Source: Eubacteriales bacterium
GTDB lineage: Bacteria; Bacillota; Clostridia; Oscillospirales; CAG-272
Length of the DNA stretch: 64,000 nucleotides
Reading direction: 5' to 3'
NCBI GenBank assembly: GCA_045533675.1
Contig: JAZSIF010000001.1
Span: 18,980-82,979, forward strand
Under the pieces are notes generated by a model. The model was not told the origin of the DNA. It saw nothing but the letters and a program-made list of their open reading frames with translations, and did not search any database. A program made the position numbers and the translations under genes. Each line of letters starts with the position of its first letter. Within the stretch, counting starts at the first letter, position 1. Below are positions 10,543-33,340 of this stretch, in pieces.

Positions 10543-10607
10543 CCGATTGAAAACGAAACGCATATACTGGCAGGGAATCCAATTGACAAAGAAAGGAATC
10601 GCTGTCT

Positions 10608-10967: not shown

Positions 10968-10987
10968 TTCAGAGGAAAGGAGTAGCC

Positions 10988-12388: not shown

Positions 12389-12405
12389 CTTGGAAAGGAG
12401 ACGGT

Positions 12406-12924: not shown

Positions 12925-13068
12925 AAAGCGTTTTCTCTCCGAGCAAGTTTTCCGCTTTCTCTGCGTACAATAAAAAGAAGAACCCCCGTCTTTCCGATTA
13001 AACCACACAAGGAGGGGCAATAATTTCACTGAATCCATCGGGAGAAATAGAAGGGTGCAAAGATCATT

Positions 13069-16552: not shown

Positions 16553-16589
16553 GTTCCTCTCCCTCATCCATTCAACAAGGAGTAACACC

Positions 16590-17153
16590 ATGAGCGCCAA
16601 TGATCGAATCCAATGGCTTCACAAAAAAATAATTGCGGGCTGTTATCCCAATGCCTCACACCTTTCCGAGCGCTTTGAGATCTCCCACCGCCAGGCACAG
16701 CGTGACGTGGAGTATCTGCGGAAGGACTTAGAGGCTCCCTTGCGGTATTGCTCCAAGAAAAAGGGATACTACTACGACGGAGATTTTATGCTTCCTCTTC
16801 TTCTCGAAGCGGAAAACGATACCGACTATCAGGACGTGGTATCGGGACTTCGGGCATTCAACGATCTGTCTGCCGTTCGCTCCATCGTCCAGCTTCAGCT
16901 TCCCTATTCGGCAACGCTGGAGATCACCGATAAAATGACGGTCATGAATCTGCGTGCCTTTATCGTAGGCGAGGAGCCTCATCACCGCTACCGCTGTGAA
17001 TTTCCCAGCGTGGAGCTCTTCCTCGGTATTGCCGTGTCCGCCGATGCCGACGTTCGCATCATTTCCCCGGACTGGCTTCGGGTCAAGCTGGTGGATTTTG
17101 CCAAGCGAATCTTAGAGAGAAATCAAGTAGAAGAGGATGAAGAGGAGGCTTGA
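16590..17153 (+). CDS. HTH transcriptional regulator, YafY-like but short
   Basis: MSANDRIQWLHKKIIAGCYPNASHLSERFEISHRQAQRDVEYLR is HTH_11-like. The C-terminus ADADVRIISPDWLRVKLVDFAKRILE is WCX-like. The start is set at the ATG after AAGGAG. Confidence 0.6.
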   Translation: MSANDRIQWLHKKIIAGCYPNASHLSERFEISHRQAQRDVEYLRKDLEAPLRYCSKKKGYYYDGDFMLPLLLEAENDTDYQDVVSGLRAFNDLSAVRSIVQLQLPYSATLEITDKMTVMNLRAFIVGEEPHHRYRCEFPSVELFLGIAVSADADVRIISPDWLRVKLVDFAKRILERNQVEEDEEEA

Positions 17154-17206: not shown

Positions 17207-17234
17207 TTGACAAATCAATTTTTCATGGTATAAT
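17207..17234 (+). promoter_or_regulatory. sigma-A promoter for rplJL
   Basis: TTGACA (17207-12), 16-nt spacer ending TGg, TATAAT (17229-34). Confidence 0.65.
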
Positions 17235-17239
17235 ATTTG

Positions 17240-17405
17240 ATGTTATCCAAAGACAGCAGGTCTCCGTAAAGGCAAATGCCTCCCTGCCGAGGACAAGATC
17301 AATGAAATATTCTTTTCGTTATCTTTCTTCGCGCAAGGACTATGTCTTTCGGAAGAAAGTTTTTTATTTCCTGCTTACACATTTTCACATGGGAGGTGAA
17401 AGAAA
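17240..17405 (+). promoter_or_regulatory. ribosomal protein L10 leader with attenuator terminator
   Basis: A roughly 165-nt 5' UTR before rplJ, ending in the hairpin CTTTCTTC(17323-30)...GAAGAAAG(17352-59) plus TTTTTT. The position and architecture fit the Firmicute L10 leader. Confidence 0.55.
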
Positions 17406-17954
17406 GTGGCTAGCAAATCCATTCTTGAACAGAAGCAAGCGATTGTTGCGGATCTGGCGGAGCAACTGAAGAATTCTCCTGCGGGTGTTGTCGTTAACTA
17501 CCAGGGTATCACCGTGGATGCTGATACGAAGATGCGTAAGGCTCTCCGTGAGGCAGGCGTTAAGTACACCGTTATGAAGAACTCCATGACCGGCAGAGCT
17601 TGTGACGAGGTAGGTCTTGGCGATATGAAGCAGTACCTGACCGGTATGACCGCTATCGCAATCGGAACCACCGACGCAGTCGCTCCTGCAAAGGTCCTCA
17701 AGGAGTACGCAGAGAAGATCGAATCCTTCGAGATTCTGGCAGGTTACCTTGACGGAAAGGTAGTGGACAAGGATACGGTCCTCTATCTGGCGGACATTCC
17801 TTCGAAGGAAGTCCTCATCGCAAAGTTGCTCGGAAGCATCAAGTCCCCTCTGTACGGTCTTGCATACGCTCTCCAGGCAGTCGTCGACAGAGACGGCGAG
17901 GCAGCCCCCGAGGCTGCAACCGAAGCTGCTCCCGAGGCAGCAACCGAGGCTTAA
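17406..17954 (+). CDS. rplJ: 50S ribosomal protein L10
   Basis: GTG start after GGAGGTG. Sequence SILEQKQAIVADLAEQLKNSPAGVVVNYQGITV. The C-tail carries the repeat EAAPEAAT x2. Confidence 0.95.
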   Translation: MASKSILEQKQAIVADLAEQLKNSPAGVVVNYQGITVDADTKMRKALREAGVKYTVMKNSMTGRACDEVGLGDMKQYLTGMTAIAIGTTDAVAPAKVLKEYAEKIESFEILAGYLDGKVVDKDTVLYLADIPSKEVLIAKLLGSIKSPLYGLAYALQAVVDRDGEAAPEAATEAAPEAATEA

Positions 17955-18027
17955 TTACCGCCTCAATATTTTATGCGTCTTAACGCAAATTTAAATTTAT
18001 TGATTCCGATTAAGGAGGAACACGAAA

Positions 18028-18408
18028 ATGGCATCTGAAAAGATCACTAACATTCTTGAAGAGATCAAGTCTCTCACCATCATTGAGCTCGCTGACCTGG
18101 TAAAGGCAGTTGAGGAAGAGTTCGGCGTATCCGCAGCAGCTCCCGTAGGCGTTGTCGCAGCAGCTGGCGCTGCAGCAGCTCCCGCGGCTGAGGAGAAGAC
18201 CGAGTTTGACGTAGTGCTGAAGTCCTTCGGCGCTAAGAAGCTGGACGTTATCAAGGCAGTTCGCGAGATCACAGGTCTGGGTCTGAAGGAAGCTAAGGAA
18301 ATGGTTGAGGGCGCTCCCAAGACCGTTAAGGAAGGCGTTTCCAAGGACGAGGCTGAGTCTGTTAAGAAGGCTCTCGAAGAGGCTGGCGCTGAGGTTGAGG
18401 TTAAGTAA
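18028..18408 (+). CDS. rplL: 50S ribosomal protein L7/L12
   Basis: [34 protein letters not shown]...Ala-rich hinge...[13 protein letters not shown]. Confidence 0.95.
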
Positions 18409-18513: not shown

Positions 18514-18552
18514 CAAAAAAGCTCTTGTTCCGTTTGGAACAAGAGCTTTTTC
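18514..18552 (-). terminator. intrinsic (bidirectional) terminator after the distal ftsZ
   Basis: AGCTCTTGTTCC gttt GGAACAAGAGCT flanked by an A-run and a T-run. Confidence 0.75.
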
Positions 18553-18561
18553 ATCATTCAA

Positions 18562-19632
18562 TCAAAACAGATTTCCGAGAATCGAGTCAACCAGATCCTC
18601 GTTCTTCTTTGGCTCTTCCTTGGGAGCCTCCTCCGCGGGAGCTTCCTTGGAAACGACTTCCTCAATGGGAGTTGCCTCCTGATCAAAGCCTGCGGCAACG
18701 ATGGTAATTCTCATCTCATCCTCAAGCTCGTTGTCAAATGCCACACCGAAGATCACGCTTGCCTCGGCATTGCACTCGGAGGAGATCATAGAAGCAGCCA
18801 GATCCACATCCTCCAGACCCACGTCGGGAGAAGCGGAAATACTGATGATGATTCCCTTCGCGCCCTTGATCGAGGTCTCGAGCAACGGGCTGGAGATCGC
18901 CATGCCTGCGGCAACCTGTGCCTTATCCTTACCTGTTGCGCTGCCAACGCCCATGTATGCCTTGCCGGAGTTGGCAATGACAGAAGTAACGTCAGCAAAG
19001 TCGATGTTGATAAATCCGGGAACGTTAATGAGATCGGAGATGCTCTGTACCGCACGGCGAAGCACCTCGTCTGCCTCGGTGAACGCATTCATGAGAGTAA
19101 TGCGGGTATCGGTAACCAGCTTCAGTCTCTCGTTGGGAATGACCACCAAGGAGTCTACGTAAGGAGCAAGCTCGGCAATTCCCTCATTGGCGCGGTCCAT
19201 CTTCTTGCGACCCTCAAACTGGAAGGGAGTGGTCACCACACCCACCGTAAGGATCTCCATTTCCTGCGCCAGTCTTGCTACCACGGGGGTAGCGCCCGTA
19301 CCGGTTCCGCCGCCCATACCCGCTGTGATAAAGATCATGTCTGCACCCGAAAGCAGCTTCTTAAGCTCATTGACCGCTTCCTCAGCGGCTCTCTCGCCGA
19401 TCTCGGGGTTGGAGCCCGCGCCGAAGCCATTGGTAATCTTTTCACCGATCACCAGCTGGGTGGTCGCCTTACATCTTCTGAGCGCCTGCTTGTCCGTGTT
19501 GATGGCGATAAAGTCCACGCCCTTTACACCTGCGGCGATCATACGGTTGATGGCATTGTTTCCGCCTCCGCCTACACCGACTACCTTAATCTTTACGCCG
19601 TAATCCATTACGCTATCCTGTTCAAAAGCCAT
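18562..19632 (-). CDS. ftsZ: cell division GTPase FtsZ, distal copy
   Basis: 356 aa with [37 protein letters not shown], a disordered PAEEAPKEEPKK linker and the tail DLVDSILGNLF. RBS AGGAGG is 7 nt upstream. Confidence 0.93.
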   Translation of the reverse strand: MAFEQDSVMDYGVKIKVVGVGGGGNNAINRMIAAGVKGVDFIAINTDKQALRRCKATTQLVIGEKITNGFGAGSNPEIGERAAEEAVNELKKLLSGADMIFITAGMGGGTGTGATPVVARLAQEMEILTVGVVTTPFQFEGRKKMDRANEGIAELAPYVDSLVVIPNERLKLVTDTRITLMNAFTEADEVLRRAVQSISDLINVPGFINIDFADVTSVIANSGKAYMGVGSATGKDKAQVAAGMAISSPLLETSIKGAKGIIISISASPDVGLEDVDLAASMISSECNAEASVIFGVAFDNELEDEMRITIVAAGFDQEATPIEEVVSKEAPAEEAPKEEPKKNEDLVDSILGNLF

Positions 19633-19703
19633 ATCTTTGCCTCCTATCGTCCGACCCTTGGGTCAGCCCATCCTTCTCTATTAAACTATCCTTACGTTCC
19701 TGA

Positions 19704-20792
19704 TCAAACACCGAACATGGAGCCGAGGAAATCATCCAGATCCACATCCGCCTTCTTTGCGGGTGCTTCCTCTACCTTAGGAGCTTCCTCTGCTTTAAGA
19801 GCTTCCTCTGCCGCCTTGGGAGCTTCCTCTGCCATATCCTTGGAGAAGCCCGTAGCGATGAGGGTGATTCTCATTTCATCCTCCAGCTCGGGATCAAAGG
19901 CTACACCGAAGATCACGTTGGCATCGGGATTGCACTCGTTGGTCACCATGGTACAAGCCACGTCTACGTCGGCAAGTCCCACGTCGGGAGACGCGGTAAT
20001 ACTCAAAATGATACCCGTAGCGCCCTTGATGGAGGTGTCGAGGAGAGGGCTGGAGATCGCCATCTTTGCCGCGTTCTCTGCCTTGTCCTTACCCGACGCG
20101 CTACCGATACCCATATGTGCCAGACCAGAGCGGTACATAACCGAGGTCACGTCCGCAAAGTCCAAATTGATCACACCCTCAATGTTGATCAGCTCGGAAA
20201 TGCTCTGTACGGCACGGCGAAGCACGTCGTCAGCCTCGGAGAAGGCGTTGAAGAGCGTGATTCTTGTATCCGATACCAAACGGAGTCTCTCGTTGGGGAT
20301 CACCACTAAGGAGTCTACGTACTGGCGAAGCTCGTCGATACCCTGAAGTGCCTGATCCATTCTGCGCTTGGACTCAAAGGCAAAGGGGGTGGTTACCACG
20401 CCGACGGTGAGAATATCCATTTCGTGGGCGATTCTTGCCACCACGGGAGCAGCGCCCGTACCCGTTCCGCCGCCCATGCCCGCGGTAATAAATACCATAT
20501 CCGCACCTGCCAGCACGGTCTTAATCTGCTCAATGGATTCCTCCGCGGAGCGCTCACCGATGGATGGGTTGGCACCCGCGCCAAAGCCCTTGGTGATCTT
20601 TTCTCCAATGACGATCTGCGTAGGCGCTACCGAATTTTTCAGCGCCTGACGATCGGTATTGATGGTAATAAACTCGACGCCCTGTACGCCCGACCGAATC
20701 ATACGGTTGACTGCGTTATTTCCGCCTCCGCCAACGCCGACCACCTTAATACAAACGCCGCTCTCAAAGCTTTCGTCACGTTCAAAACTCAT
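19704..20792 (-). CDS. ftsZ: cell division GTPase FtsZ, proximal copy
   Basis: 362 aa from MSFERDE (GGAGGAG 6 nt upstream; the track adds MEEIN). It has [37 protein letters not shown], an [14 protein letters not shown] linker and the tail [12 protein letters not shown]. Confidence 0.93.
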
Positions 20793-20845
20793 GTTGATCT
20801 CCTCCAAATCTTCCTTACGATCGAAATCATAAAATATACATATAT

Positions 20846-20874
20846 ATCATAATATATTTTTCTGTTTTTTTCAA
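20846..20874 (-). promoter_or_regulatory. candidate promoter for the ftsZ pair
   Basis: Minus strand TTGAAA, 17-nt spacer, TATGAT, in a very AT-rich 230-bp gap. Confidence 0.4.
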
Positions 20875-20937
20875 TACCTTTTTTGAAATTTTTCAAGAAT
20901 TTTCACTTTTTTTTTGCCGAAAAATCGAATTTTTCGC

Positions 20938-20976
20938 AAAAAACAAAAAATCGGTTGAAATTCAGGCTTCAACCGA
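20938..20976 (-). terminator. intrinsic terminator after ftsQ
   Basis: Minus strand TCGGTTGAA gcctgaat TTCAACCGA followed by TTTTTTGTTTTTTG. Confidence 0.7.
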
Positions 20977-21021
20977 CATTTTGTTATGAGTTTTTTCAGT
21001 GACCACAACATATGGTGGTAT

Positions 21022-21825
21022 CTACTGAGATTTGCTCTCGCTGTCTTCGGGAACGACAGGAGGCATTTTGACCGAAACAGCAATAGGATCGTCCGAATTT
21101 TCCGCCGTGATCTCACCGCTCTCGGCACCCGCCAAGCGATCCGATACCAGCACCACTCCGACCTGCTCCAGTTTATAGGAAAGCTCCTCCGCACTGCCGA
21201 GCTTTACCGTGAATTTTTCGTCCACTACCAAGCGGATATTTCGTCTGTCCACCACATTGACCTCGCTCATGCGTCCAAAGTAGGAGCAGGAGCGAATGGT
21301 GTCGATGATCTCCAGCGTTCGGCGAAGCTCATTCTCATCCTCCGCAAAGGAGGGGACAGATCCCGCGATCACTCGTTGAACGTCGGGAAGAATGAGGCGG
21401 GTCATTCCCTCGGTAGACTCGATCTCGTCAATGACCAACAGATTTTCATTGAGGGCATACTTCCCTCCCGATATTTCAATGTACCAGGGGGTAAATCGCT
21501 CGGTAATCACCACCTTGAGTCGGTTGGGGAATATTGGACGTAGTTCCAAATTTAAAAGAAAGGGAAATTCTTTGAGCATTCGCTCCTTGATGGCATCGCT
21601 GTCAAGGTCATAGAGCCAATCCTTCCCACCAAGGTTCAAGCCCTCAATGAGCAGCTCCTCGCTGTATCTTCCTTCACCCTCGATCTCGATGACACCCACC
21701 GTGCAAAAGCGTTTGACAACGGACGCGCAGGAAAGGATCGCCAATGCGCACAATATGATCATCACCATCAGAAGAATCGCTCTACGGATGTTGACACCTT
21801 CCCACCTGGTCCCGTTTCTCTTCAC
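21022..21825 (-). CDS. ftsQ: cell division protein FtsQ/DivIB (POTRA domain)
   Basis: 267 aa with one N-terminal TM segment (ILLMVMIILCALAILSCA), then VIEIEGEGRYSEELLIEGL... (POTRA-like). Its position between murG and ftsZ also fits. Confidence 0.8.
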   Translation of the reverse strand: MKRNGTRWEGVNIRRAILLMVMIILCALAILSCASVVKRFCTVGVIEIEGEGRYSEELLIEGLNLGGKDWLYDLDSDAIKERMLKEFPFLLNLELRPIFPNRLKVVITERFTPWYIEISGGKYALNENLLVIDEIESTEGMTRLILPDVQRVIAGSVPSFAEDENELRRTLEIIDTIRSCSYFGRMSEVNVVDRRNIRLVVDEKFTVKLGSAEELSYKLEQVGVVLVSDRLAGAESGEITAENSDDPIAVSVKMPPVVPEDSESKSQ

Positions 21826-21853
21826 GGTACACTCTCCTTTCCTTTATCGTCTT

Positions 21854-22969
21854 TTACTTTCTTTTCACGAGCTTCTGAATTTCTCCCCAGATTTTCCGAT
21901 TCACCTCGGGATCGGCAAACATTTTCACCGATTCGCTCATGCTCGTTCGGATCTCCTCGTTCTCCACGATTTTTCGGACCGAATCCAGCATCAGGTCCAT
22001 ATTCAACTCCATCTCCTCCAAAAGGATCGCCGCCCCACGGTCCGCCAACACCTTGGCGTTTTTATACTGGTGGTTATCGGCAACGTTGGGAGACGGAATG
22101 AGAATGGCGGGCTTTCCCATAATGGCAAGCTCGGTCAGAGTCATCGCTCCTGCCCGACAGATCACAAGGTCCGCCGCCGCCATATGCAAGGGCATGTCGT
22201 AAATATAGTCCTTCAGCACCAATCTCTCGTTTCGTTCCAGACCATATGCCGCAAAGATGGCTCTCGCGTTCTCATAGCCCCGAGCGCCGCCCGAATGGAA
22301 GTGCATCACGTCCGATCGGACCGAGGAAAATTCCTTCATAACTCCAATCGCAGCCTCGTTGATCTTCTGCGCCCCAAGGCTTCCGCCGAAGGACAGGATC
22401 ACGTGCTTCACGGAATGGGGAATGCCCAATTTCTTTCGTGCCTCCTCCTTGCTGACCATTCCGTAGGAAGACCTGAGAGGATTTCCCACGCAAACCACCT
22501 TCCCCTTTTCGGTCAGGAGGTCCTTGGTCTCTCGGAAGTTGGTCAGAATCACATCCACCTTCTTTTGCAGCTGACGCACCGCCACGCCGGGAAGCGCGTT
22601 GGATTCGTGGACCATATTGGGAATCCCCATAGAAATCGCCGCCCGCAAAAGAGGCCAGCAAACGTATCCTCCCGTTCCGATGACCAGATCGGGCTTGAAC
22701 TCCTTGATGATTTTCTTCGCGTGGGAGGGAGACGTCATTACATAATAGGCGGTTTTAAGATTGGAAAGGGACAAGGAACGGCGAAGCCCTTGGATTTTTA
22801 CGTGATACATGGGGTACCCTTCTCTGCCCACCAGCTTGTTTTCAATGCCACGTTCGGTGCCCACAAAGGCAATCTCTGCATGGGGTACGTTCATTTTAAT
22901 AATATCGGCAATGGCAAGAGCGGGATTGACGTGTCCGCCTGTACCGCCGCCTGTCAGTAATACTCTCAT
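21854..22969 (-). CDS. murG: UDP-GlcNAc:lipid I GlcNAc transferase MurG
   Basis: MRVLLTGGGTGGHVNPALAIAD... Confidence 0.93.
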   Translation of the reverse strand: MRVLLTGGGTGGHVNPALAIADIIKMNVPHAEIAFVGTERGIENKLVGREGYPMYHVKIQGLRRSLSLSNLKTAYYVMTSPSHAKKIIKEFKPDLVIGTGGYVCWPLLRAAISMGIPNMVHESNALPGVAVRQLQKKVDVILTNFRETKDLLTEKGKVVCVGNPLRSSYGMVSKEEARKKLGIPHSVKHVILSFGGSLGAQKINEAAIGVMKEFSSVRSDVMHFHSGGARGYENARAIFAAYGLERNERLVLKDYIYDMPLHMAAADLVICRAGAMTLTELAIMGKPAILIPSPNVADNHQYKNAKVLADRGAAILLEEMELNMDLMLDSVRKIVENEEIRTSMSESVKMFADPEVNRKIWGEIQKLVKRK

Positions 22970-22989
22970 TTGTCTCTATCCTTTCGGGT

Positions 22990-24297
22990 CTATTTTTTTT
23001 GCGAGGAATACCGTGAGATCGACAAAATAATTCCGATCTCAAAGATCTGCAACATCAATGAGGAACCTCCCGTGCTGAAAAAGGGCAAGGAAATTCCCGT
23101 GTTCGGCATCATGTTCGTCACTACGGCGATATTCATGGCGACCTGCAAAGCGATCTTAAAGGTCAAGCCCCATACCGCAAGGGCTGAAAATTTATCGGGG
23201 GCTTTCTGCCCGATACGGATGCCCCGCCAAATAAGAAGTCCAAACAAGAGGGTAACCAGGAAGGCTCCCACGAATCCGAGCTCCTCGCAGATGATGGTAA
23301 AAATGAAGTCATTTTGCGGCTGAGACACATAGCCGAATTTTTGTCGGCTGTATCCTAGCCCCAAACCGAAAAATCCACCCGAGCCAATGGCGTACATTCC
23401 CTGCAAGGTTTGCCAAGCAGAACCCAGAGGGTCTGCCTCCTCTAAATTCCACCAAATTTCCACACGGGTCTGGGCATAGTCGGACACGAGGATCAGAAAC
23501 ACACCTGCCACGGCGATGATACCGAGAAAGATGGCAAGATATTTCACGCGTGTCCCGCCCAAATACATGACCACAAGACCGAGCATGCCCACGATCATCA
23601 GTCCCGAAATATGCCGCTCCAGAGCGACCAAAGCGCAGATCACGCCGATGATGCCCATGGGAACCAAAAAGCCGTGCTTGAGGCTTCCGCCGAACTTTCC
23701 CGTGGAGGTGATCTTTTTTTCATACTTCGACATATAGAGCGCCAGCACCAGTACCACCGCCATTTTGGCGATCTCGGAGGGCTGGAGCGTGAAAAAGCCT
23801 AAGTCAATCCAACGCTGCGCCACACCCTCTGCCGCACCGATGACCAGCACCAAAAGCAAGAGGAACATGGAGACGGCATACGCGCCCACGCCAAAGACCC
23901 GCCAAAACCAAGGACGGGCAAAGGCAACGAAAAACGCGGTCACCGCCGTCGCAATGACAGCAAACAAGATGTACCGCCACAGATAATAGGTGGCGCTGTC
24001 ATAATTGCGCTCGGCATATACCGCGCTTGCGCTGTATGACATGATTGCTCCAAAGCAAAGGAGAAGGACCGCCCAAAGAAGAAACCAGCCGTCAATGCCT
24101 CCCTTTTCCAAGGGGGCACTCTCGTCTTCTTTTTTGGCGGGTGTCAAGGGCTCGGTAAACGCCGGGTCCTTTTCCACCATTCTTTGCTCCTGCCTCTCGC
24201 GAAAGAGGGCAAGCTTGCCATTCAGCTTCGATGTGTGTTTCGGTTGTTCGGGCAGATCCCGTTTTTGATTCTCTTGGTTTTCCTTCAAAATCGGCAC
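22990..24297 (-). CDS. ftsW: SEDS-family FtsW/SpoVE
   Basis: 435 aa and about 10 TM segments, containing GSGGFFGLGLGYSRQKFGYVSQPQNDFIF. There is a roughly 70-aa charged N-terminal extension. Confidence 0.88.
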   Translation of the reverse strand: MPILKENQENQKRDLPEQPKHTSKLNGKLALFRERQEQRMVEKDPAFTEPLTPAKKEDESAPLEKGGIDGWFLLWAVLLLCFGAIMSYSASAVYAERNYDSATYYLWRYILFAVIATAVTAFFVAFARPWFWRVFGVGAYAVSMFLLLLVLVIGAAEGVAQRWIDLGFFTLQPSEIAKMAVVLVLALYMSKYEKKITSTGKFGGSLKHGFLVPMGIIGVICALVALERHISGLMIVGMLGLVVMYLGGTRVKYLAIFLGIIAVAGVFLILVSDYAQTRVEIWWNLEEADPLGSAWQTLQGMYAIGSGGFFGLGLGYSRQKFGYVSQPQNDFIFTIICEELGFVGAFLVTLLFGLLIWRGIRIGQKAPDKFSALAVWGLTFKIALQVAMNIAVVTNMMPNTGISLPFFSTGGSSLMLQIFEIGIILSISRYSSQKK

Positions 24298-24329
24298 CTT
24301 CCCTTCTTATTTTCTGTTTCAGGCACTCC

Positions 24330-25322
24330 TCAGAGCGCAAACCATGCCGCAAGGCAGCATAGAGCCGTCACAATTGAGAAGACCGTGACCACCTTCGCCT
24401 CGCTCCATCCGCATTTTTCAAAGTGATGATGGATGGGCGCCATTTTAAAGATTCGCTTATTGCGAAGCTTGAAGCTCCCTACCTGCAGCATCACCGATAC
24501 GGATTCCATAATATACACGAAGCCCACGATGAATACGAGCATGGGCTCGTTGATGATAAACACCGCTCCCGTCACCACACCTCCGAGGAAGAGAGAACCA
24601 GTGTCTCCCATAAACACCTTGGCGGGATGCAGATTATAAATGAGAAATCCGACCATACCGCCCACAAGCGCCCCCGAAAGGAGGGTCAGGGAATCGTGCA
24701 GGTACTGGATTCCCACAAAGCCGAAGAAGCAGAAGACCACAAGGGTCACGGTGCTTGCCAGTCCGTCGATGCCGTCGGTAAGGTTGACACTGTTGACAAC
24801 ACCCACGATGACAAACATGGCAAAGACGTAGTAAAGAATCCCAAGCTCCACGTAAATATCAGTAAAGGGGATATGGAGCATGGTATCAATGTTTCCGAAT
24901 TTCTGCATAAGGAAAATATACGCCACCGCCGCGATGATCTGAAGCAGAGCCTTTTGATATGCCTTCAAGCCTTGATTCTGCTTTTTCATCAGCTTGCAGT
25001 AGTCATCCACAAAGCCGATCATGCCGTTCATGACCGCCAAAGAAAGGGTCAATGCCAAGGGGATCAGCTGACTCTGCTCTCCACGGCAAAGATAGTACAC
25101 CAAAAAGCCAAGCAGGCACAGGAGAATCGCTAAAATAAAGCAGATGCCTCCCATGGTAGGCGTTCCCGCCTTACTCTTGTGCCAATTGGGACCCAGCTCA
25201 TAGATCACCTGTCCCACCTTTTTTTCTCTCAGCTTGGGAATGATGAAGCGCCCCAGCACCGCAGTCAGCAAAAAGCACACTGCCGCCGCCAGTCCGAATT
25301 GTATCCATTGCTCCTTCATCAT
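24330..25322 (-). CDS. mraY: phospho-N-acetylmuramoyl-pentapeptide transferase MraY
   Basis: Contains [31 protein letters not shown] and APIHHHFE. Confidence 0.93.
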
Positions 25323-25344
25323 TTGTCTCCCATCTTATCCGTCT

Positions 25345-26787
25345 TTAGGCTGAAAGCCGCTGACTGTTTTCCTTCAAATACTGAATAATGCGCTCCGCGG
25401 CAGCTCCTCTGCTTGCCTTGACCAAAAGCGTATCTCCTTGACGCAGAGTTCCCAAGAGCATCTCGCCGCTCAGCTCAGGCGAGCGGGTATCGGCATTGCG
25501 ATACATCAACTCGGGGTCCATTCCGCCAAGGATCGCACCCATGGCAATCTGCTCGGCAGACTGTCCAAAGGTATATAAAAGCTCACCGCCCATACGGGCA
25601 AAGTACAGCCCTGTCTCCTCGTGAAATTTTTCTGCATCGCTTCCCAGCTCATACATATCCCCAAGCACTGCCGCCATTCTGCCGCTTCCCTTTCTTTCGG
25701 AAAGGCTGTGGAGCACACGAATCGCCGCGCGCATGGATTCGGGGCTTGCGTTGTAGCAATCCTCGATAATGGTGATCCCACCGATCTCATAGATGTTCTG
25801 TCTCATGCCCACGGGACGGTAGCACATGAGTCCATGCGCGATCGCCTGATCGGACAGATTCATACGCACGCCCACCGCAAACGCGAAGAGGGCGGCATAG
25901 ATATTGTGACGGCCCATGGTGGGGATGGTCACGTCCTTTACGGTCTTACCGAAATATTCTACGTCAAATACAGTTTTTCCGATCTCCTCGCGGATATTCA
26001 CCGCGCGGAAATCACATTCGCTATCGATGCCCACAAATACGGGGATTTTGTTGCCCGTGGGGTAGCAACGAAGCAAGGGCTCGTCGCCGTTGAGAAGTAG
26101 CGCGCCGCCCTCCTTGAGTCCTGCCATGATCTCCATTTTGGCATGGCAGATGTTTTCACGGGAGCCAAGATGCTCCATGTGAGAAGAACCGATGGTGGTC
26201 ACAATGGCTATGTCGGGCTCGGCAATGCGGGACATATATTCGATCTCGCCGAAATCGCTCATGCCCATCTCCAGCACCGATACCTCGGTATCATTCTGCA
26301 TGGAAAGGAGAGACAGAGGCATACCGAGGGTACTGTTGTAGTTTCCTTCGGTCTTATGCACGCGAAACGCTTCGCCAAGCACTGCCGCCACAAATTCCTT
26401 GGTGGTGGTTTTGCCTACACTTCCCGTAATCGCGACCTTTCTGTGGTTCAAACGGCGGTCGTATGCCTTGGCAAGCTCGCCGATGGCGCGTAAGGAATCC
26501 TCTACGACAACCGCCACGTATTTGTGATCCATGGTTTCGGGAATTCTCTCACACAGCACGCAGGCGTTGCCCGAGGAAACGGCGGCGCCGATATAGTCAT
26601 GACCGTCCACACGCTCCCCGCCAAGGGCTACAAAGAGGGTACCCTCTGCCGCCTCACGGGAGTCGGTGCAGACCGAACGAAAAGGAAGATTCCGATTGAT
26701 CTCGCCGCCCACGCAGCACAAAAGACCGCCGCAAATCTGAGCAAGCTCTGCCATCGTCAAGCTGTTACATCCTACGTTGACCTTCAT
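25345..26787 (-). CDS. murF: UDP-MurNAc-tripeptide--D-Ala-D-Ala ligase MurF
   Basis: ITGSVGKTTTKE and a Mur ligase layout. The start is set at MKVNVG (GGGAGGG upstream). The track begins at a GTG 10 codons earlier. Confidence 0.9.
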   Translation of the reverse strand: MKVNVGCNSLTMAELAQICGGLLCCVGGEINRNLPFRSVCTDSREAAEGTLFVALGGERVDGHDYIGAAVSSGNACVLCERIPETMDHKYVAVVVEDSLRAIGELAKAYDRRLNHRKVAITGSVGKTTTKEFVAAVLGEAFRVHKTEGNYNSTLGMPLSLLSMQNDTEVSVLEMGMSDFGEIEYMSRIAEPDIAIVTTIGSSHMEHLGSRENICHAKMEIMAGLKEGGALLLNGDEPLLRCYPTGNKIPVFVGIDSECDFRAVNIREEIGKTVFDVEYFGKTVKDVTIPTMGRHNIYAALFAFAVGVRMNLSDQAIAHGLMCYRPVGMRQNIYEIGGITIIEDCYNASPESMRAAIRVLHSLSERKGSGRMAAVLGDMYELGSDAEKFHEETGLYFARMGGELLYTFGQSAEQIAMGAILGGMDPELMYRNADTRSPELSGEMLLGTLRQGDTLLVKASRGAAAERIIQYLKENSQRLSA

Positions 26788-26818
26788 TCGTTTCTTCCCT
26801 CCCGAGCATTCGCTCACT

Positions 26819-28321
26819 TTATTTCTGATATCCTTCTATCCGTCTGCGATAAGCCTTCCGAAGAATCTCTCGCTCGTCAAAGGGGATCCGTCCCTGTTCG
26901 TTGATCTCGTACTGTTCGTGTCCCTTGCCCGCTAAGAGAAGAATGTCTCCCCGTCCGGCAAGCGATACTGCCCATTCAATGGCTTCGCCTCGGTCGGCGA
27001 TCACCGCATGAGGCTTTTCCTTGTCGATCCCCCGCAAGACATCTGAGAGGATATGCTCTCTTGCCTCTCCCCTGGGGTTATCCGAGGTCAGGATCACGAA
27101 ATCCGCATAGGCGGATGCGATCCGTCCCATTTGCTCCCGTTTGCCTCGGTCTCGCTCGCCGCCGCATCCGAAGAGCAAAAGAAGTCTACCTCCGCCCGCA
27201 CGGAGCGGAAGCAGGGTTTTGAGTATTTTTTCAAGGGCATCGGGGGTGTGGGCGTAATCAATGACCGCCGAGAACTCCGCGGGCGGCTCGAAGCGCACTT
27301 GCTCCATTCTCCCCGTGACCCCCGAGGTCTTTTCAAAAACCTTGAGGATTTTCTCGGGAGCCATTCCCTCCCCCATGGCGACTGCCGCCGCCAGCGTTGC
27401 GTTGATGATCGAAAAATTGCCGGGAATCGACAACCGCGCGGGGTAGCTGCCCACGGGTGTTTTCAGCACAAATCGGCTGCCGCTCATTCCCGTACTCTCC
27501 ACGCGGAGAGCGCAAAAGTCCCCCTCTTCCGTCGAACAGGTCAAAAAAGGAATCGTCAGCTCCTTCGCCAGTCGGCGGATATAAGGATCGTCTATGAATA
27601 AGACCGCTCCTTGGCACCTTGTGAAGAGCCTCCGTTTGGCTTGAAAGTAATCCTCCATCGTGCCATGAAAGTCCAAATGATCCTGTGTCAGATTGGTAAA
27701 TACCGCCCACCGAAATTCGATGGCATCCACACGGGAGAGGGAGAGCGCATGGGAGGAAACCTCCATTATCACGTATTCCACTCCGTCCGCCGCCATCTGG
27801 GCAAGCATTCTGTAAAGCACCTCGGGATCGGGCGTTGTCATATTCGCTAAAGGGTCGCTTCCCCGCGGGGTAAGCATCCGTCCGCCCGCCGAACGGCATT
27901 CCACCGTTCCGATCACGCCGCATATCCTTCCCCACGCTTCGAGAAGCTCCCGAATAAGAAAGGTGACCGACGTTTTTCCGTTGGTTCCCGTCACGCCGAT
28001 GATCTTCAGGCGACCGACGGGGTTTCCGTACCACGCGTTATAGAGCAAAGCAGCCGCATTCCTTGTGTTCTTAAGCACGATCCATGCTGCGGCACCACCC
28101 ACACACACGTCACACACTTGCTCTGCCACTATAACCGAGGCACCTCTTATCATTGCCTCCACCGCAAACTCATGTCCGTCCAAGCGGGTCCCCTTCATGC
28201 AAATGAACAGGCTTCCCGCGCTCACTCTCCGAGAGTCGGTGGCAATGTCTGTAATTTCAATCTCTCCCAGCTCGGGAGGGTAACCAAGTCCGGCTCTGCC
28301 GAACAATTCAAACAGCTTCAT
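26819..28321 (-). CDS. murE: UDP-MurNAc-L-Ala-D-Glu--meso-DAP ligase MurE
   Basis: VTGTNGKTS is present, and the DNPR motif (TSDNPRGE) implies meso-DAP. The start is at MKLFELF (GGAGG upstream). The track GTG at 28354 is also possible. Confidence 0.9.
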   Translation of the reverse strand: MKLFELFGRAGLGYPPELGEIEITDIATDSRRVSAGSLFICMKGTRLDGHEFAVEAMIRGASVIVAEQVCDVCVGGAAAWIVLKNTRNAAALLYNAWYGNPVGRLKIIGVTGTNGKTSVTFLIRELLEAWGRICGVIGTVECRSAGGRMLTPRGSDPLANMTTPDPEVLYRMLAQMAADGVEYVIMEVSSHALSLSRVDAIEFRWAVFTNLTQDHLDFHGTMEDYFQAKRRLFTRCQGAVLFIDDPYIRRLAKELTIPFLTCSTEEGDFCALRVESTGMSGSRFVLKTPVGSYPARLSIPGNFSIINATLAAAVAMGEGMAPEKILKVFEKTSGVTGRMEQVRFEPPAEFSAVIDYAHTPDALEKILKTLLPLRAGGGRLLLLFGCGGERDRGKREQMGRIASAYADFVILTSDNPRGEAREHILSDVLRGIDKEKPHAVIADRGEAIEWAVSLAGRGDILLLAGKGHEQYEINEQGRIPFDEREILRKAYRRRIEGYQK

Positions 28322-28375
28322 CTCTGCCTCCGAGGAACTTGTGTTTTCTTTCACTTCCTCGGCGCACAGCCTTTT

Positions 28376-31039
28376 TTATTCCAGATCGTCGTCCGCGACC
28401 ATGGAACGGAATTTCAGGGTAATGACCGTTCCCGGCTTCACCATAGCTCCGGGCTCTACCGACTGGGCATAAACCTCCGCGTCGGCACCTCTGGTCCCTT
28501 CGATTTTCACATTCAGATTCAATCCCATCAGACGGGCATTGGCGTAGGTTGCGTTTTTTCCCACAAGATCGGGCATCTGAACGGTCTCGGCGGGAGTGGC
28601 ATCCCCTACGTAAAGGATGATCTTTCCCGTATCCTTTTGTACGTAACTGCCCGACGCGGGGCTCTGCGCTTTGACAATACTGCCCTCGGTCACGTCGCCG
28701 ATGATCTCGTATTTGAGACCCATCTTGGTGATAGACTCAATGGCCTTGTTCACGCTCCAGGTACGCCAGCTTCCTACCTTGGTTGCCAGCTTTGCCTCCT
28801 CCTCGGCGGTGTAAATGGCTTCCACACCCAGGTAAGGCAAAATATTTTTCAGTGCCGCGCCCACGTAAGGAGCGGCGACCGTACTTCCGTACATTCCCTT
28901 TTGAGGATCGTCCACCATAATGAGAATGGCGACCTCGGGATCGTCAGCGGGGGCATATGCCACCGTGGAGCAGACGTATGCGTCGGGGAACGTAAGCTTA
29001 ATCACGTCGCCCTTGACCGCGTATATGCCTTGACTCACCGATTGGTCCTTCACCGTACCGTAAATGCCGGTCCCCTCAATGGTGAAATTCAAGCCCGCAG
29101 CCTTGAGAAGCGCCTTGGCACGGTCGAGACTGATCCCCGTCAGCTTGGGAACCTTGACACTCGCCTTGGCGTTCTCCTTGGTAAAGAGAACCACAATCCC
29201 GTTTTCCTTTACCATTTTGGTACCCTCTTGGGGGTTTTGCGAAAGGATCTGAGCATCGTCATTCCCGTCGCCCGCAATTTCCACACGAAGCCCCGCGGCT
29301 TCCAGTGCCGTTTTTGCCTCAGCGAGGGTCATCCCCACGTAGCTTTCCAAAGTAACCGTGGAATGTCCCGTCTCTTTTTTCTCAGAGGTTCCCGTTTTCG
29401 CGGCAACCCGATAGCCCGCCACATAGGCGTTTTTCGCTCCGCCATTGCCCGAAACACCCTCCTCAAGCATCTCGGAGATGGTCTTACAGACCTCTTCGCT
29501 GACCACGGTTCTCTTAACCTCAGCCTTATGCTGATAGATCACGTTTCCCGCCTTGTCGGTGATCTTCTCCACAAGGTAGGGGGTCATCAGCGTGCCGTTG
29601 TTGGCAACCGCCGACACCGCCATGATCTGTTGCAGGGGGGTTACGTTGAAGTTCTGACCGAAGGCGTAGATCGCAAGGTCAAGCTCGGTCTGAAGGTCGA
29701 AGGGTCCAACTCCCTCACCGGGCAGGTCAATGCCCGTTTTTTCCTTATATCCAAACGCCTTATGGTACTGCTTGTAGGTATCAATGCCAACAAGCTCTCC
29801 CAAAGTCATGAACCATACGTTGCAGGATTGCTGCAAGCCCTCGGAAAAGGTCAGGCTTCCGTGACCCTTGCGCTGGTGGCAATGGATCACCTGTCCAAGG
29901 ACGGTCTTATGTCCGGGGCAATACACGCTCCCAGGGATCCCGTCTTTTCTCTCCTCCAGCGCCATGGCGGAGGTGATGATCTTAAAGGTAGAACCGGGAA
30001 TATAGCTCTCAGTCACGGCTTTATTGGACCAGGTCTCGGTCAGGAGCTTCATTTGAAGCGCGCTGTATTCCTCGCTCCCTGCCGTGTAGCCGCTGGACGC
30101 AAGCGCATTCTTTGCCGCTTCATCCATCTCCCAAGGATTGTTCAAATCAAAAGGAGAGGAGGTTGCCATGGCAAGCACCGCGCCTGTCTTGACGTCTACC
30201 ACAATGCCACAGGCACGGTTCATAGCGATATTATCCTCTGCCGTAGCCGCCAGCTGCTCTTCCAGATAGGTCTGAATGGTTGCGTCAATGGTGGTGGTCA
30301 GATCGTAGCCGTCCACGGCTTCGATACAGTTGGCGTAATCAAAGGGCATCACGTTTCCGTAAGAGTCTCTTGCGGTGACGTAATATCCGTCCACACCCTT
30401 GAGATAATCGTTGTATTGGTATTCCAATCCGTAAAGCCCTACGCCGTCATTGCTCGTAAAGCCAATGGCATGAGCGGCAAGGCTGTTCCCGGGGTAATAT
30501 CTTGTGTTTTGCGCTTCCAAATAGATCATCGTGCCGAGTCCATGCTCGTCGATGTATCCACGGATGCGATCGGCGGTCTCTTCGTCCACCTTTCGGGCAA
30601 TGGTTCGGTCCAGATATTTGGAATATTCCACGATCTGATGATAGACCGTATCGTATTCCACGCCATCCAGCAGCTCGGAAAGTCCCCTTGCCACCAGATC
30701 GGGATAATCAGTCGCGTCTCCCTCCTCAACCTCGCTTTGGGCGGTCTTGATACCCGAGGGAGAAACGAACACACGGTAGGTGGTAATGTTGGTCGCCAGT
30801 ACCTTTCCGTTTCGATCATAGATCTTTCCCCGATTGGCGGGGATGGGGGTCTCGGTTGTGATCTGATCGAGCACCTTCCCTTGATATTTTTTAAAATCTA
30901 CGGTCTGAACCAAAAGGATACGGATGAGAAGAACGACGAAGACAGCGAGAATGACGATGCCGAGCGCGGTCGATCGCTTGATCGCCGACCCTTGGATCGA
31001 ACGTTTCACCATTCTGTTCCTCCCTTCCGATTTCTTCAA
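28376..31039 (-). CDS. class B penicillin-binding protein (PBP2B/SpoVD-like) with four PASTA domains, two of them nested
   Basis: N-terminal TM and dimerisation domain, then GSTFK (SxxK), QQSCN (SxN) and AKTGT (KTG). Two PASTA units follow directly after KTGTSEKKE, before the TPase resumes at YVCSTVAYAPADDPEVAILIMVDDPQ. Two more PASTA units sit at the C-terminus. Confidence 0.9.
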   Translation of the reverse strand: MKKSEGRNRMVKRSIQGSAIKRSTALGIVILAVFVVLLIRILLVQTVDFKKYQGKVLDQITTETPIPANRGKIYDRNGKVLATNITTYRVFVSPSGIKTAQSEVEEGDATDYPDLVARGLSELLDGVEYDTVYHQIVEYSKYLDRTIARKVDEETADRIRGYIDEHGLGTMIYLEAQNTRYYPGNSLAAHAIGFTSNDGVGLYGLEYQYNDYLKGVDGYYVTARDSYGNVMPFDYANCIEAVDGYDLTTTIDATIQTYLEEQLAATAEDNIAMNRACGIVVDVKTGAVLAMATSSPFDLNNPWEMDEAAKNALASSGYTAGSEEYSALQMKLLTETWSNKAVTESYIPGSTFKIITSAMALEERKDGIPGSVYCPGHKTVLGQVIHCHQRKGHGSLTFSEGLQQSCNVWFMTLGELVGIDTYKQYHKAFGYKEKTGIDLPGEGVGPFDLQTELDLAIYAFGQNFNVTPLQQIMAVSAVANNGTLMTPYLVEKITDKAGNVIYQHKAEVKRTVVSEEVCKTISEMLEEGVSGNGGAKNAYVAGYRVAAKTGTSEKKETGHSTVTLESYVGMTLAEAKTALEAAGLRVEIAGDGNDDAQILSQNPQEGTKMVKENGIVVLFTKENAKASVKVPKLTGISLDRAKALLKAAGLNFTIEGTGIYGTVKDQSVSQGIYAVKGDVIKLTFPDAYVCSTVAYAPADDPEVAILIMVDDPQKGMYGSTVAAPYVGAALKNILPYLGVEAIYTAEEEAKLATKVGSWRTWSVNKAIESITKMGLKYEIIGDVTEGSIVKAQSPASGSYVQKDTGKIILYVGDATPAETVQMPDLVGKNATYANARLMGLNLNVKIEGTRGADAEVYAQSVEPGAMVKPGTVITLKFRSMVADDDLE

Positions 31040-31090
31040 AATTTTCTTTGAAACGATAGTATTATATGAGAAGCGGAAGGCTTATATTCG

Positions 31091-31906
31091 TCAGTCCAGA
31101 GTGATCCCGAAGGCAGCCAGGAGCGTGGCAAGTCCCACGTTTTGCGGCTTCTTTTCCTCGGGAGCGATGATCTGCTCTTCCCCTTTGGGTTCGAGATATT
31201 CGTTGTCGGCATATTTGCGGGCAATCATTCCAAGGCTCTTTGCGTCCTTGGCGATCTCTTCAGCATCGTATTTCAGATCAAGCGCGGCTTCCAGCTCCAC
31301 TTGCTCCGCTTCCAGCTTCTGAATGGTCGCTTGCGTCTTTCCCACCTTTCCCGAGGCACTCCCCAGCATGACCGATCCGCTGACGATGAGTCCCAAGGAA
31401 ATGGTGAACACGGCGATTCCCGAGAGAACCGAAGCGGGGAGCTTAAACCGTTTGCCCTCGGTCCGTCCCTCCTTGCGCTCAACGGGAAACCATTCCACTG
31501 CCAGTTTCTTCAATGCCGACTTTGCTTGTGCTAAATGACCCTCCTTTCCGTTTGGCTCGGAGCCGATCCGTCCGCCCGAAGCGGAGGCTCTTCTCTGAGG
31601 AACGGCGGGGCTTCTCTGTATGGCAGGCATGTAAAACGCTCTGCGTGTTTTGAAGTAACGAATGAAATCATCGGAGGTCATGTATTTGCTGCCTTGATAC
31701 TCACCGCTGCGATAGCGATCGGCAATCTTGCTCTCGGCATCAAACAGAGTGTATGCTTCGGGAGCCATGCCCCGAACCTCTGCCTCTCTGGCTGTCTGAC
31801 TCGCAAGCTCTCCCTTTACGTTTTCCGAAAAGCCTCTGCCTCTGTAACGGCGGCGAAGCTCCTCCAGACAACGACCGTAGGAATCGTTCATTTGTTCAAC
31901 AGCCAT
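31091..31906 (-). CDS. FtsL-position bitopic coiled-coil protein with a long cytoplasmic N-extension
   Basis: 271 aa with one TM segment (VLSGIAVFTISLGLIVSGSVMLG). This is followed by the FtsL-like IQKLEAEQVELEAALDLKYDAEEIAKDAKSLGM. It lies between rsmH and the PBP gene. Confidence 0.5.
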   Translation of the reverse strand: MAVEQMNDSYGRCLEELRRRYRGRGFSENVKGELASQTAREAEVRGMAPEAYTLFDAESKIADRYRSGEYQGSKYMTSDDFIRYFKTRRAFYMPAIQRSPAVPQRRASASGGRIGSEPNGKEGHLAQAKSALKKLAVEWFPVERKEGRTEGKRFKLPASVLSGIAVFTISLGLIVSGSVMLGSASGKVGKTQATIQKLEAEQVELEAALDLKYDAEEIAKDAKSLGMIARKYADNEYLEPKGEEQIIAPEEKKPQNVGLATLLAAFGITLD

Positions 31907-31969
31907 CTTTCAACCTCCTGTGCCGCTCATGCGGCTTTTTTCTGACAATTTATCTTCGAAAACAAACCT

Positions 31970-32908
31970 TCAAAGCTTTTCCGCTACCCGAAGCTTTGCG
32001 CTACGAGAGCGGGGGTTTTCCTCCAGCTCCTCTTTTGAGGGGAGGATTGGCTTGCGGCTGATCACTCGTACCTGAGGTTTCTTTCCGCATACGCAGATGG
32101 GAAAGTCCTTTGGGCATTCACACCCTTTGGCAAGGTCCGCAAAAGTCTGCTTCACAATACGGTCCTCCAAGGAATGGAAGGTGATGATGGCAATGCGGCC
32201 GCCCGGATTCAGAAGCGATACCGCATCCCGAATGGCAGGCTCGATCACGTCCAATTCTCCGTTCACCTCAATGCGGATGGCTTGAAAGCTCCGCTTGGCG
32301 GGGTGATGTCCCCCTTCTCTCGCCGCGGGGGGCATGGAATATTTAATCAGGTCACTGAGCTCGGCGGTGGTTTCAATGGGCTTTTTCGCTCTCGCCCGCA
32401 CGATCGCCGCCGCAATGGCAGGAGCGAACCGTTCCTCGCCGTACTCAAACAAAATCCTTTTCAGTTGCGCTTCGCTGTACTCGTTGACCACCCGATAAGC
32501 ATCAAGACTTCTTCTTGCGTCCATCCTCATGTCAAGAGGTGCGTCCGCTTGGTAGGAAAATCCTCGCTCGGGAGTGTCCAGCTGATAGGAGGAAACACCA
32601 AGGTCCAAGAGAAGCCCGTCGATCCCGCCAATCTCCAACTCCCCGCAGACTCTCGCGAGCTCCGAGAAATTGCTCCTGACCACCTTGGCTCTCTCTCCGA
32701 GGGGTGCCAGCTTTGCGCTTGCCGCGGCAATGGCGGCGGCATCCTGATCAATGGCGATCAATCTACCCTTTGTCAGACGGGAGGCAATTTCATAGGAGTG
32801 ACCGCCGCCACCGGCGGTACCGTCCACGTAGATGCCATCCTCTCGAATGTTCAATCCTTCTATGCACTCATTCAGTAAGACCGAACGATGAGAAAATTCT
32901 TGGCTCAT
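31970..32908 (-). CDS. rsmH: 16S rRNA m4C1402 methyltransferase RsmH
   Basis: HRSVLLNECIEGLNIREDGIYVDGTAGGGGHS. Confidence 0.93.
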   Translation of the reverse strand: MSQEFSHRSVLLNECIEGLNIREDGIYVDGTAGGGGHSYEIASRLTKGRLIAIDQDAAAIAAASAKLAPLGERAKVVRSNFSELARVCGELEIGGIDGLLLDLGVSSYQLDTPERGFSYQADAPLDMRMDARRSLDAYRVVNEYSEAQLKRILFEYGEERFAPAIAAAIVRARAKKPIETTAELSDLIKYSMPPAAREGGHHPAKRSFQAIRIEVNGELDVIEPAIRDAVSLLNPGGRIAIITFHSLEDRIVKQTFADLAKGCECPKDFPICVCGKKPQVRVISRKPILPSKEELEENPRSRSAKLRVAEKL

Positions 32909-32917
32909 ATCCGCTCC

Positions 32918-33340
32918 TTAGAGTCCAAAGGATTCGAGCAGATCCTTCATACCTGCCAGATCCTCTTCCTCGACCATTGCGGCGTAGTTCACGTCGGACC
33001 AGATCTCGGCATATCCGCCGCATCCCACGATCACCGCGTTCTTTTCCAGCTCCGCATGGGCAATCAAATCGGGAGTCAGGACGATTCTGCCCTGGGAATC
33101 GGCGCTGACCTGCGCGGCATTTCGGCTGAGAGCTCGAATGATCCGATCCTTGTCCTTGCCGTCCAGCTTTTTAATAGGCTCAATGTAGGCATCCCATTCC
33201 GCCATGGAATAGACACGGAGGCAACGCTCACGAATGCTTTTGGATACCACGAAGAATTCCCCCAGCTCTTCTCTGTGCTTGGAAGGAATGAAAATTCTGT
33301 TTTTGGGGTCTAAGCTATGCTTGTATTCGCCCGACAGCAT
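32918..33340 (-). CDS. mraZ: transcriptional regulator MraZ
   Basis: 140 aa with two SpoVT-AbrB halves: SLDPKNRIFIPSKHR and ADSQGRIVLTPDL. Confidence 0.93.
   Translation of the reverse strand: MLSGEYKHSLDPKNRIFIPSKHREELGEFFVVSKSIRERCLRVYSMAEWDAYIEPIKKLDGKDKDRIIRALSRNAAQVSADSQGRIVLTPDLIAHAELEKNAVIVGCGGYAEIWSDVNYAAMVEEEDLAGMKDLLESFGL

Follow-up and report, generated by a model that had tools for sequence, protein, structure and literature searches.

Tandem full-length ftsZ genes retained in a clade of uncultured Oscillospirales

The window analysed here is a stretch of 64,000 nucleotides from the genome assembly of a Eubacteriales bacterium of the Oscillospirales (GCA_045533675.1, contig JAZSIF010000001.1, positions 18,980 to 82,979). 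It carries two full-length ftsZ genes, head to tail on the minus strand and separated by a 71-nt spacer, at the 3' end of the mraZ-to-ftsQ dcw (division and cell wall) cluster. We call the upstream copy ftsZ-up and the downstream copy ftsZ-down. As predicted from their sequences, the two genes encode catalytically intact, full-length FtsZ paralogues, and the pair stems from a single, old event of tandem duplication that dates back to the common ancestor of a large clade of uncultured Oscillospiraceae-type Clostridia of gut and rumen, in which both copies have stayed adjacent ever since. What might a bacterium do with two FtsZs? The answer we favour, at a probability of roughly 0.55, is that both would join a single Z-ring, in filaments that are mixed or co-bundled, the short- and long-linker forms dividing the labour. 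The pair is a widespread, already-sequenced property of its clade and is of a known kind, that of FtsZ paralogue pairs, which is uncommon in bacteria.

A survey of division genes in Firmicutes counts FtsZ among the monogenic families (PMC8136486), multiple ftsZ genes have been stated to have been reported only in archaea before (bioRxiv 10.64898/2026.04.17.719208), and the paralogues in bacterial ftsZ duplications are described as often truncated (bioRxiv 10.1101/2025.09.29.679267). The first-pass annotation of this DNA had allowed that the pair might prove to be a common and already characterised feature of its lineage. It is indeed common among the genomes of the lineage, but we found no paper that characterises it and no report of this Oscillospirales ftsZ pair in the literature searched, a coverage that most subscription journals lie outside.

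Results

Two intact FtsZ proteins

Open reading frames (ORFs), BLASTP, Pfam and the TIGR00065 model all agree with the first-pass description, in which two complete ftsZ genes with 71 nt between them close the dcw cluster. The two proteins are 68% identical (84% positives, E = 5e-156 by BLASTP), and the core domains are 73% identical, close to the 70% that had been estimated by eye. Both copies match Tubulin (PF00091; E = 1e-50 and 6e-50) and FtsZ_C (PF12327; E = 3e-32 and 1e-29), and both pass the 295.2-bit cut-off of the TIGR00065 ftsZ equivalog model, with 415.6 and 404 bits. In sequence comparison with solved FtsZ structures, the best match of the ftsZ-down protein has E = 5e-102.

Both copies contain GGGGNN, NTD, GFGAG, GGGTGTG and IPNE, as well as the T7 loop N(L/I)DFADV. 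Across 81 single-copy relatives, 95 columns are near-invariant (each at least 95% conserved). The ftsZ-up protein retains 94 of these, with the conservative G141S as the exception, and the ftsZ-down protein retains 90, the exceptions V100I, A115T, M219I, H226Y and T314A being likewise conservative. The annotation had judged both copies functional, provided that rigorous alignment did not turn up disabling substitutions in the GTP-binding or T7 residues; such substitutions were sought in the motifs and the 95 conserved columns of both copies and none was found, and both proteins still look functional. Each also has the linker and terminal peptide that had been ascribed to it.

ORF calling placed ftsZ-up at 19704..20807, with a TTG start and 367 aa. 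Orthologues of ftsZ-up begin MSFERDE, and a GGAGG at 20801-20805 lies 8 nt 5' of an ATG at 20792; we therefore take this ATG to be the true start. Table 1 uses it.

One old duplication

The longest run of identical DNA between the two ftsZ genes is 17 nt. Thirteen clade loci have a readable context (the window, L001, L002, L081, L082, L085, L087, L088, L089, L090, L091, L092 and L093), and these come from different samples or assemblies (NCBI, ENA, JGI). In all 13, ftsZ-up is followed by ftsZ-down on the same strand. The genes 3' of the pair vary among the loci (rplL/rplJ, clpC, a decarboxylase and others), so the adjacency of the pair is not merely the synteny of close strains.

Each FtsZ was also searched against a collection of 5.8 billion proteins in clusters defined at 90% identity, and the best 120 clusters were listed per copy, all at about 70% identity or more. 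Among these listed matches, every cluster with a named source comes from uncultured metagenome-assembled genomes (MAGs) labelled Clostridia, Ruminococcaceae or Oscillospiraceae. As read from the tables, there are at least 27 pairs of clusters across the two lists whose longest contigs are identical in size.

In neighbour-joining trees built on the core domain, bootstrap support is 100/100 for the clade of downstream-type proteins and 88 for that of upstream-type proteins, the two clades being joined at 86. Single-copy relatives all fall outside both paralogue clades, L004 and L005 being nearest. With 240 database proteins added, at least 119 fall in the downstream-type clade and at least 111 in an upstream-type group that consists of two subclades. 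The downstream clade includes partners of both of these subclades, so the duplication is older than the split between them. Together with a dS (synonymous divergence) of ~1.1 between the paralogues, at a dN (nonsynonymous divergence) of ~0.2, the separate clades bear out the earlier impression that the duplication is old. They also answer the phylogenetic check that had been suggested: both paralogues are retained across the lineage as orthologous pairs, as expected of a two-FtsZ system.

How have the two copies evolved since? The stem branch of the downstream clade (0.078-0.083) is about three times as long as that of the upstream clade (0.025). After the stem both copies are equally slow, with mean column entropies of 0.42 and 0.47 versus 1.08 in outgroups. 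Core dN/dS between orthologues is 0.04-0.10 for both copies, the mark of strong purifying selection on each. Within genomes, the proportion of synonymous differences (pS) between the paralogues is 0.48-0.65, below the 0.70-0.73 of the deepest orthologues; we attribute this low value to codon bias and third-position GC content shared within a genome, plus saturation. The codon bias of both ftsZ genes is like that of rplJ, with an effective number of codons of 41-44 versus 45-55 in other dcw genes. Gene conversion was considered and rejected, as the protein clades are apart at 100% bootstrap and there are no long identical runs. A mobile element or a transferred second copy was likewise rejected, as the paralogues are sister clades.

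Two further tandem full-length ftsZ lineages, unrelated to the duplication in the window, occur among 80 sampled species. Pairs at L072:5914-8221 and L075:6001-8328 encode four proteins that form a clade of their own, and L037:4806-7077 holds a pair with the divergent copy upstream. The second copy of the L072 type has a small metagenomic family of its own: among the matches listed, about 8 clusters reach at least 80% identity and others lie at 64-73%, and some of these have contigs equal in size to those of a partner in the same list. Tandem duplication of ftsZ thus seems to be recurrent in the Oscillospirales, to judge from these genomes.

Promoters, spacers and transcription

The intrinsic terminator 3' of ftsQ is the boundary between the ftsZ unit and the remainder of the dcw cluster (Table 1). 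A hairpin and T-run resembling it also lie 5' of the first ftsZ in L087 and L089. Both ftsZ genes are preceded by strong Shine-Dalgarno sequences.

Table 1. Features of the ftsZ pair and the adjoining dcw cluster (window coordinates)
Feature	Position	Strand	Description
dcw cluster	21022..33340	-	mraZ (33340..32918), rsmH, ftsL/divIC-like gene, SpoVD-like penicillin-binding protein (PBP) gene with PASTA domains, murE, murF, mraY, ftsW, murG, ftsQ
Terminator 3' of ftsQ	20950..20977	-	Intrinsic; 11-bp stem, then TTTTTTGTTTT
Promoter of the ftsZ unit (predicted)	20846..20874	-	Sigma-70-type; TTGAAA, 17 nt, TATGAT; 10/12 matches; within the conserved block AAATTTCAAAAAAGGTATTGAAAAAAA..AAAATATATTATGATATA
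ftsZ-up	19704..20792	-	362 aa; slower-evolving, ancestral-like paralogue; C-terminal region 44 aa
Spacer	19633..19703	-	71 nt; no promoter or terminator; small hairpin; AGGAGG Shine-Dalgarno at 19640-19645
ftsZ-down	18562..19632	-	356 aa; longer stem branch; C-terminal region 38 aa, ending DLVDSILGNLF
Terminator closing the ftsZ-ftsZ unit	18514..18553	-	Strong, intrinsic; 18-bp stem, then T-run

All 13 clade loci have the promoter block of the window ahead of the first ftsZ; in seven of them it is found again 5' of the second. These seven (L001, L002, L081, L082, L085, L088 and L093) have long spacers, of 142-201 nt, which contain a second copy of the block (AAATTTTCAAAAAGGTATTGAAAAAAA..AAAATATATTATGATATA) that aligns with the first, including the region 5' of the -35 element. 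A similar ftsZ promoter, TTG(A/C)AA, 17 nt, TAT(G/C/T)AT, is found in single-copy relatives. Clear terminator hairpins with T-runs precede the inter-gene promoter in L002, L081 and L085, and a similar hairpin is present in L001. RNAfold gives strong hairpins followed by T-rich sequence for the L001 and L081 spacers, and in L082 and L088 the T-run is short; simple terminator scans missed imperfect hairpins in some of the long spacers. Since the block in the spacer matches the upstream block, the duplicated unit comprised promoter and gene, with probably a terminator as well.

A promoter was also sought in the short spacers (27-95 nt) of the window and five other loci, and none was found. The promoter being duplicated in the long spacers and absent from the short ones, the bicistronic arrangement in the window is derived. 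In the window, a single predicted promoter would drive a bicistronic ftsZ-ftsZ mRNA. The first-pass annotation had seen no terminator between the genes, which is right for the 71-nt spacer, and had proposed one transcript; this holds for the window, with neither promoter nor terminator inside the unit, but not as the general state of the clade. Since one promoter, or copies of that promoter, would drive both genes, co-expression is favoured and a transcriptional switch between vegetative growth and sporulation is disfavoured.

The small hairpin in the window spacer (19651-19666, minus strand; CTGACC/GGTCGG) is GC-rich and lies directly 5' of the ftsZ-down Shine-Dalgarno sequence. Hairpins in this place, of differing sequence, also occur in L087, L089, L081, L082 and L088, and the hairpin is kept even where spacers have shortened to 57-73 nt. 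It may be an element that stabilises or processes the mRNA.

C-terminal tails and core residues

FtsZ of the Clostridiaceae controls ends in the canonical D-I-P-x-F-L-R-R. In single-copy Oscillospirales the end is an amphipathic helix with a basic terminus, such as DPFDSIFKIFNSK, and 94% have K or R within the last four residues. Both paralogue clades have an acidic end of the type D-L-(L/D)-D-D-F-(F/L)-G-x-M-F, with a net charge of -2 to -3 over the last 12 residues and only rarely a basic terminus. Neither copy in the window has the canonical peptide D-I-P-x-F-L-R-[KR] with its basic end. The acidic motif, common to both paralogue clades, is absent from the single-copy relatives, and its appearance coincides with the pair-bearing clade. 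The first-pass annotation had suggested that the two tails may bind distinct partners. They are rather variants of one lineage-specific motif, not two docking codes, and it is more likely that they bind the same class of partner. Both copies of the pair do keep a C-terminal docking peptide; plastid FtsZ1 is not known to have one.

The region after the core differs in length between the two types. Its median is 32 residues in the downstream type (interquartile range 29-34) and 53 in the upstream type (44-59), and 62 in single-copy relatives. Within the core, a clean distinction between the clades is seen at only 8 positions. The downstream copy has the derived residue at five of them, namely S86A, K135T, L210I (in the T7 loop), H226Y and T314A, and the upstream copy at three, one of these being S74A in the T3 loop.

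Discussion

What sequence of events might account for the pair, and what would the two proteins do together? In an ancestor of the clade, the ftsZ transcription unit that closes the dcw cluster was duplicated in tandem as a whole. In the lineage of the window the inter-gene promoter would then have gone, and with it any terminator there, leaving a bicistronic mRNA. The two proteins would be made together, with common polymer-interface motifs and the same type of docking peptide. Joint production, shared interface motifs and a shared docking peptide make one and the same Z-ring the most likely place of work for both. The division of labour would come chiefly from how long the flexible C-terminal region is (about 32 residues for the downstream protein, about 53 for the upstream one), with a possible contribution from the few substitutions fixed in the core. 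The closest analogy is with the two FtsZs in one ring of plastids and many archaea.

How far does this analogy reach? Plastid FtsZ1 and FtsZ2 (FtsZB and FtsZA in red algae) are a similar case of an old, lineage-wide duplication whose co-expressed products share one Z-ring with different dynamics each (PMC12343686). That duplication was, of course, an independent one in another lineage, the plastid genes are not in tandem, and co-assembly has been shown in plastids, whereas for our pair we infer it. In Haloferax volcanii and other archaea, two full FtsZs have different roles in one division ring (PMC8187382; PMC9871819); there the duplication is older than the diversification of the archaea and the genes occupy separate loci, while the pair in the window is much younger, tandem and clade-level, with 73% core identity. 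Neither duplication is shared by common descent with the one described here, as the two copies in the window are each other's closest relatives within the Oscillospirales, which makes theirs an independent duplication.

Among bacteria, Segatella copri (Bacteroidota) also has a pair of full-length FtsZs, FtsZ1 and FtsZ2, but it belongs to another phylum and its copies were reported to be functionally redundant by antisense knock-down (bioRxiv 10.64898/2026.04.17.719208). In a relative of that species the second copy is truncated; every clade locus read here has two intact ones. The paralogues of the Hyphomicrobiales (Agrobacterium FtsZ1, rhizobial FtsZ2) are likewise old bacterial ftsZ duplications retained by clades (bioRxiv 10.1101/2025.09.29.679267), and the Agrobacterium homologues form co-polymers (bioRxiv 10.1101/412759). 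Those paralogues are described as truncated, however, while both copies in the window are full length with linker and tail, and neither has lost the linker, the C-terminal peptide or part of the core in the manner of a truncated paralogue. Atribacter laminatus is a further bacterium that expresses two FtsZ genes; one of its copies is extended at the N-terminus by an amphipathic stretch, and of the two genes, which lie at different loci, only one is beside ftsA (PMC7736352). The pair in the window has no such extension and is tandem.

Several points weigh against a shared ring with divided labour. What we infer about co-assembly draws only on conserved motifs and on co-expression. With no more than 8 core positions that tell the clades cleanly apart, functional divergence could be slight. 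In seven of the 13 loci the promoters are separate, and unrecognised elements could there regulate the two genes differently. The trees are neighbour-joining, not maximum likelihood, and the larger one resolves the upstream-type group no further than two subclades, with very short internodes between them. Finally, there is the reported redundancy of the full-length Segatella copri FtsZs (bioRxiv 10.64898/2026.04.17.719208), which makes redundancy or dosage a live alternative.

Might either copy alone, then, build the Z-ring, two being kept for dosage or robustness? The Segatella copri precedent, the intactness of both copies with their near-identical motifs, the promoter type or operon that they have in common and the small number of discriminating core sites all speak for such redundancy. 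But tandem dosage duplicates are usually lost or homogenised through gene conversion, and here the cores have diverged by 27%, with no identical run above 17 nt. The copies form separate clades of more than 100 clusters each, linker length and characteristic residues are conserved per paralogue, and neither copy has been lost in any of the 13 clade loci. We regard redundancy as the most serious competitor, to be given about half the credence of a shared ring with divided labour.

A bolder reading would have the two proteins form an obligate heteropolymer, a tubulin-like two-subunit filament fixed in the clade, with a re-invented acidic docking motif, a changed membrane anchor and linker lengths that set the geometry between ring and membrane. 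This we consider improbable, though worth stating.

The first-pass annotation had also raised the possibility of specialisation in time or space, one copy serving medial division in vegetative cells and the other the asymmetric septum of sporulation. The organism is a probable spore former, with a SpoVAC/SpoVAEB family gene at 51100-51561 and a SpoVD-like PBP, and separate promoters are kept in seven of the 13 loci. Yet in the window and five other loci there would be one transcript, free of an internal promoter; the internal promoters that do exist nearly repeat the upstream one, which is of the sigma-70 type, including the block 5' of the -35 element; no promoter resembling those of sporulation sigma factors was seen; and the tails are of one motif. 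The idea thus finds no support in promoters of one type or in a common transcript, and we hold it to be quite improbable.

Slightly less probable still is a modulator, in which one copy, most likely the short-linker downstream form, would mainly tune the polymer dynamics of the other instead of building the ring, as Agrobacterium or plastid FtsZ1 does. The roughly threefold longer stem branch of the downstream clade, its fixed T7-loop change L210I, the A/S74 difference in the T3 loop at the longitudinal interface, and the short, tightly constrained C-terminal region of the downstream copy would all suit such a role. That copy nevertheless keeps the full core, linker and docking peptide, unlike the known modulators. 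Its changes are conservative, E. coli FtsZ itself having Val at the T7 position changed in L210I, and its later rate of evolution equals that of the upstream copy.

An assembly artefact, or collapsed strain variants posing as a duplicate, has next to no chance of being correct and was rightly discounted in the first-pass annotation: beyond the general risk of metagenome assemblies nothing favours it, the proteins are only 68% identical, orthologues of each copy are found in more than 100 clusters, and an assembly duplicate is excluded by a longest shared DNA run of 17 nt and by the recurrence of the pair, in identical order and orientation, in 13 separately fetched loci.

If the two FtsZs do share a ring, a clade-wide, anciently fixed full-length pair in abundant gut and rumen Clostridia would be a bacterial counterpart of the two-FtsZ rings of plastids and archaea. 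It could make testable why two FtsZs are kept, how linker length affects the ring and how the C-terminal docking code changes. There is a practical side as well. Annotation pipelines built around a single ftsZ per genome may mark MAGs of this clade as contaminated or duplicated, and single-copy marker counts based on ftsZ would be inflated in it.

Genomic surroundings

The setting of the pair had been called unusual, and it is true that neither ftsA nor spoIIGA adjoins it in the window: its neighbours are ftsQ upstream and convergent rplL/rplJ downstream. This is not special to the pair, however, as ftsQ lies directly 5' of ftsZ, with no ftsA, in all six Oscillospirales relatives tested (L005, L015, L025, L037, L072 and L075). 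A Clostridiaceae control (L062) has the order ftsA-ftsZ-spoIIGA. The dcw cluster of the window lacks murD between mraY and ftsW (24297-24330) and ftsA between ftsQ and ftsZ (20808-21021), and L081 and L085 have the same gene order, without murD and ftsA. The FtsL/DivIC-like protein (31091-31906, minus strand) has 271 aa, of which only residues 164-230 match a septum-formation domain, after a long N-terminal region.

Among the loci, L087 is the closest relative found, its downstream FtsZ being 93% identical. In L087:1-2811, tblastn with the FtsQ and MurG of the window gave no match, ftsQ and murG thus not lying 5' of the ftsZ pair; a gene of 1470 aa is there on the opposite strand. A terminator-like hairpin resembling that 3' of ftsQ in the window remains in place.

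On the other side of the pair, 17229-18408 (plus strand) holds an L10 leader (RF00557, 50.7 bits), rplJ and rplL, convergent with the ftsZ genes; rpoB/rpoC do not follow rplL. The L10 leader is the sole Rfam match in the window, and ARAGORN found no tRNA there. The rplL/rplJ neighbourhood is shared by L081, L088, L089 and L091, not by L082, L085 and L093. Beside rplJ, at 15719-17153 (plus strand), are ORFs of 277 and 221 aa with no confident family, the latter having a faint WCX-domain match (E = 0.008). A similar pair occupies this place in L081, L088 and L089, consisting of a protein of 182-186 aa, with a weak WHD_BrxR match, and one of about 300 aa. Further on, 9604-15504 is a block of mecA-like, peptidoglycan-binding-domain and clpC genes, which in L082 adjoins the ftsZ pair directly. 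Since the rplJ/rplL segment separates the mecA-like/clpC block from the pair in the window and does not in L082, a local rearrangement is indicated.

The SpoVAC/SpoVAEB family gene (plus strand, E = 1.6e-39), from which the organism is judged a probable spore former, stands without other core sporulation regulators seen in the window. Very long antisense ORFs lie on the plus strand at 28118-31051 (977 aa, over the PBP gene), 21647-22960 (437 aa, over murG) and 55894-57345 (483 aa, over a CoA-activase-like gene). These are probably not genes, and could mislead gene callers.

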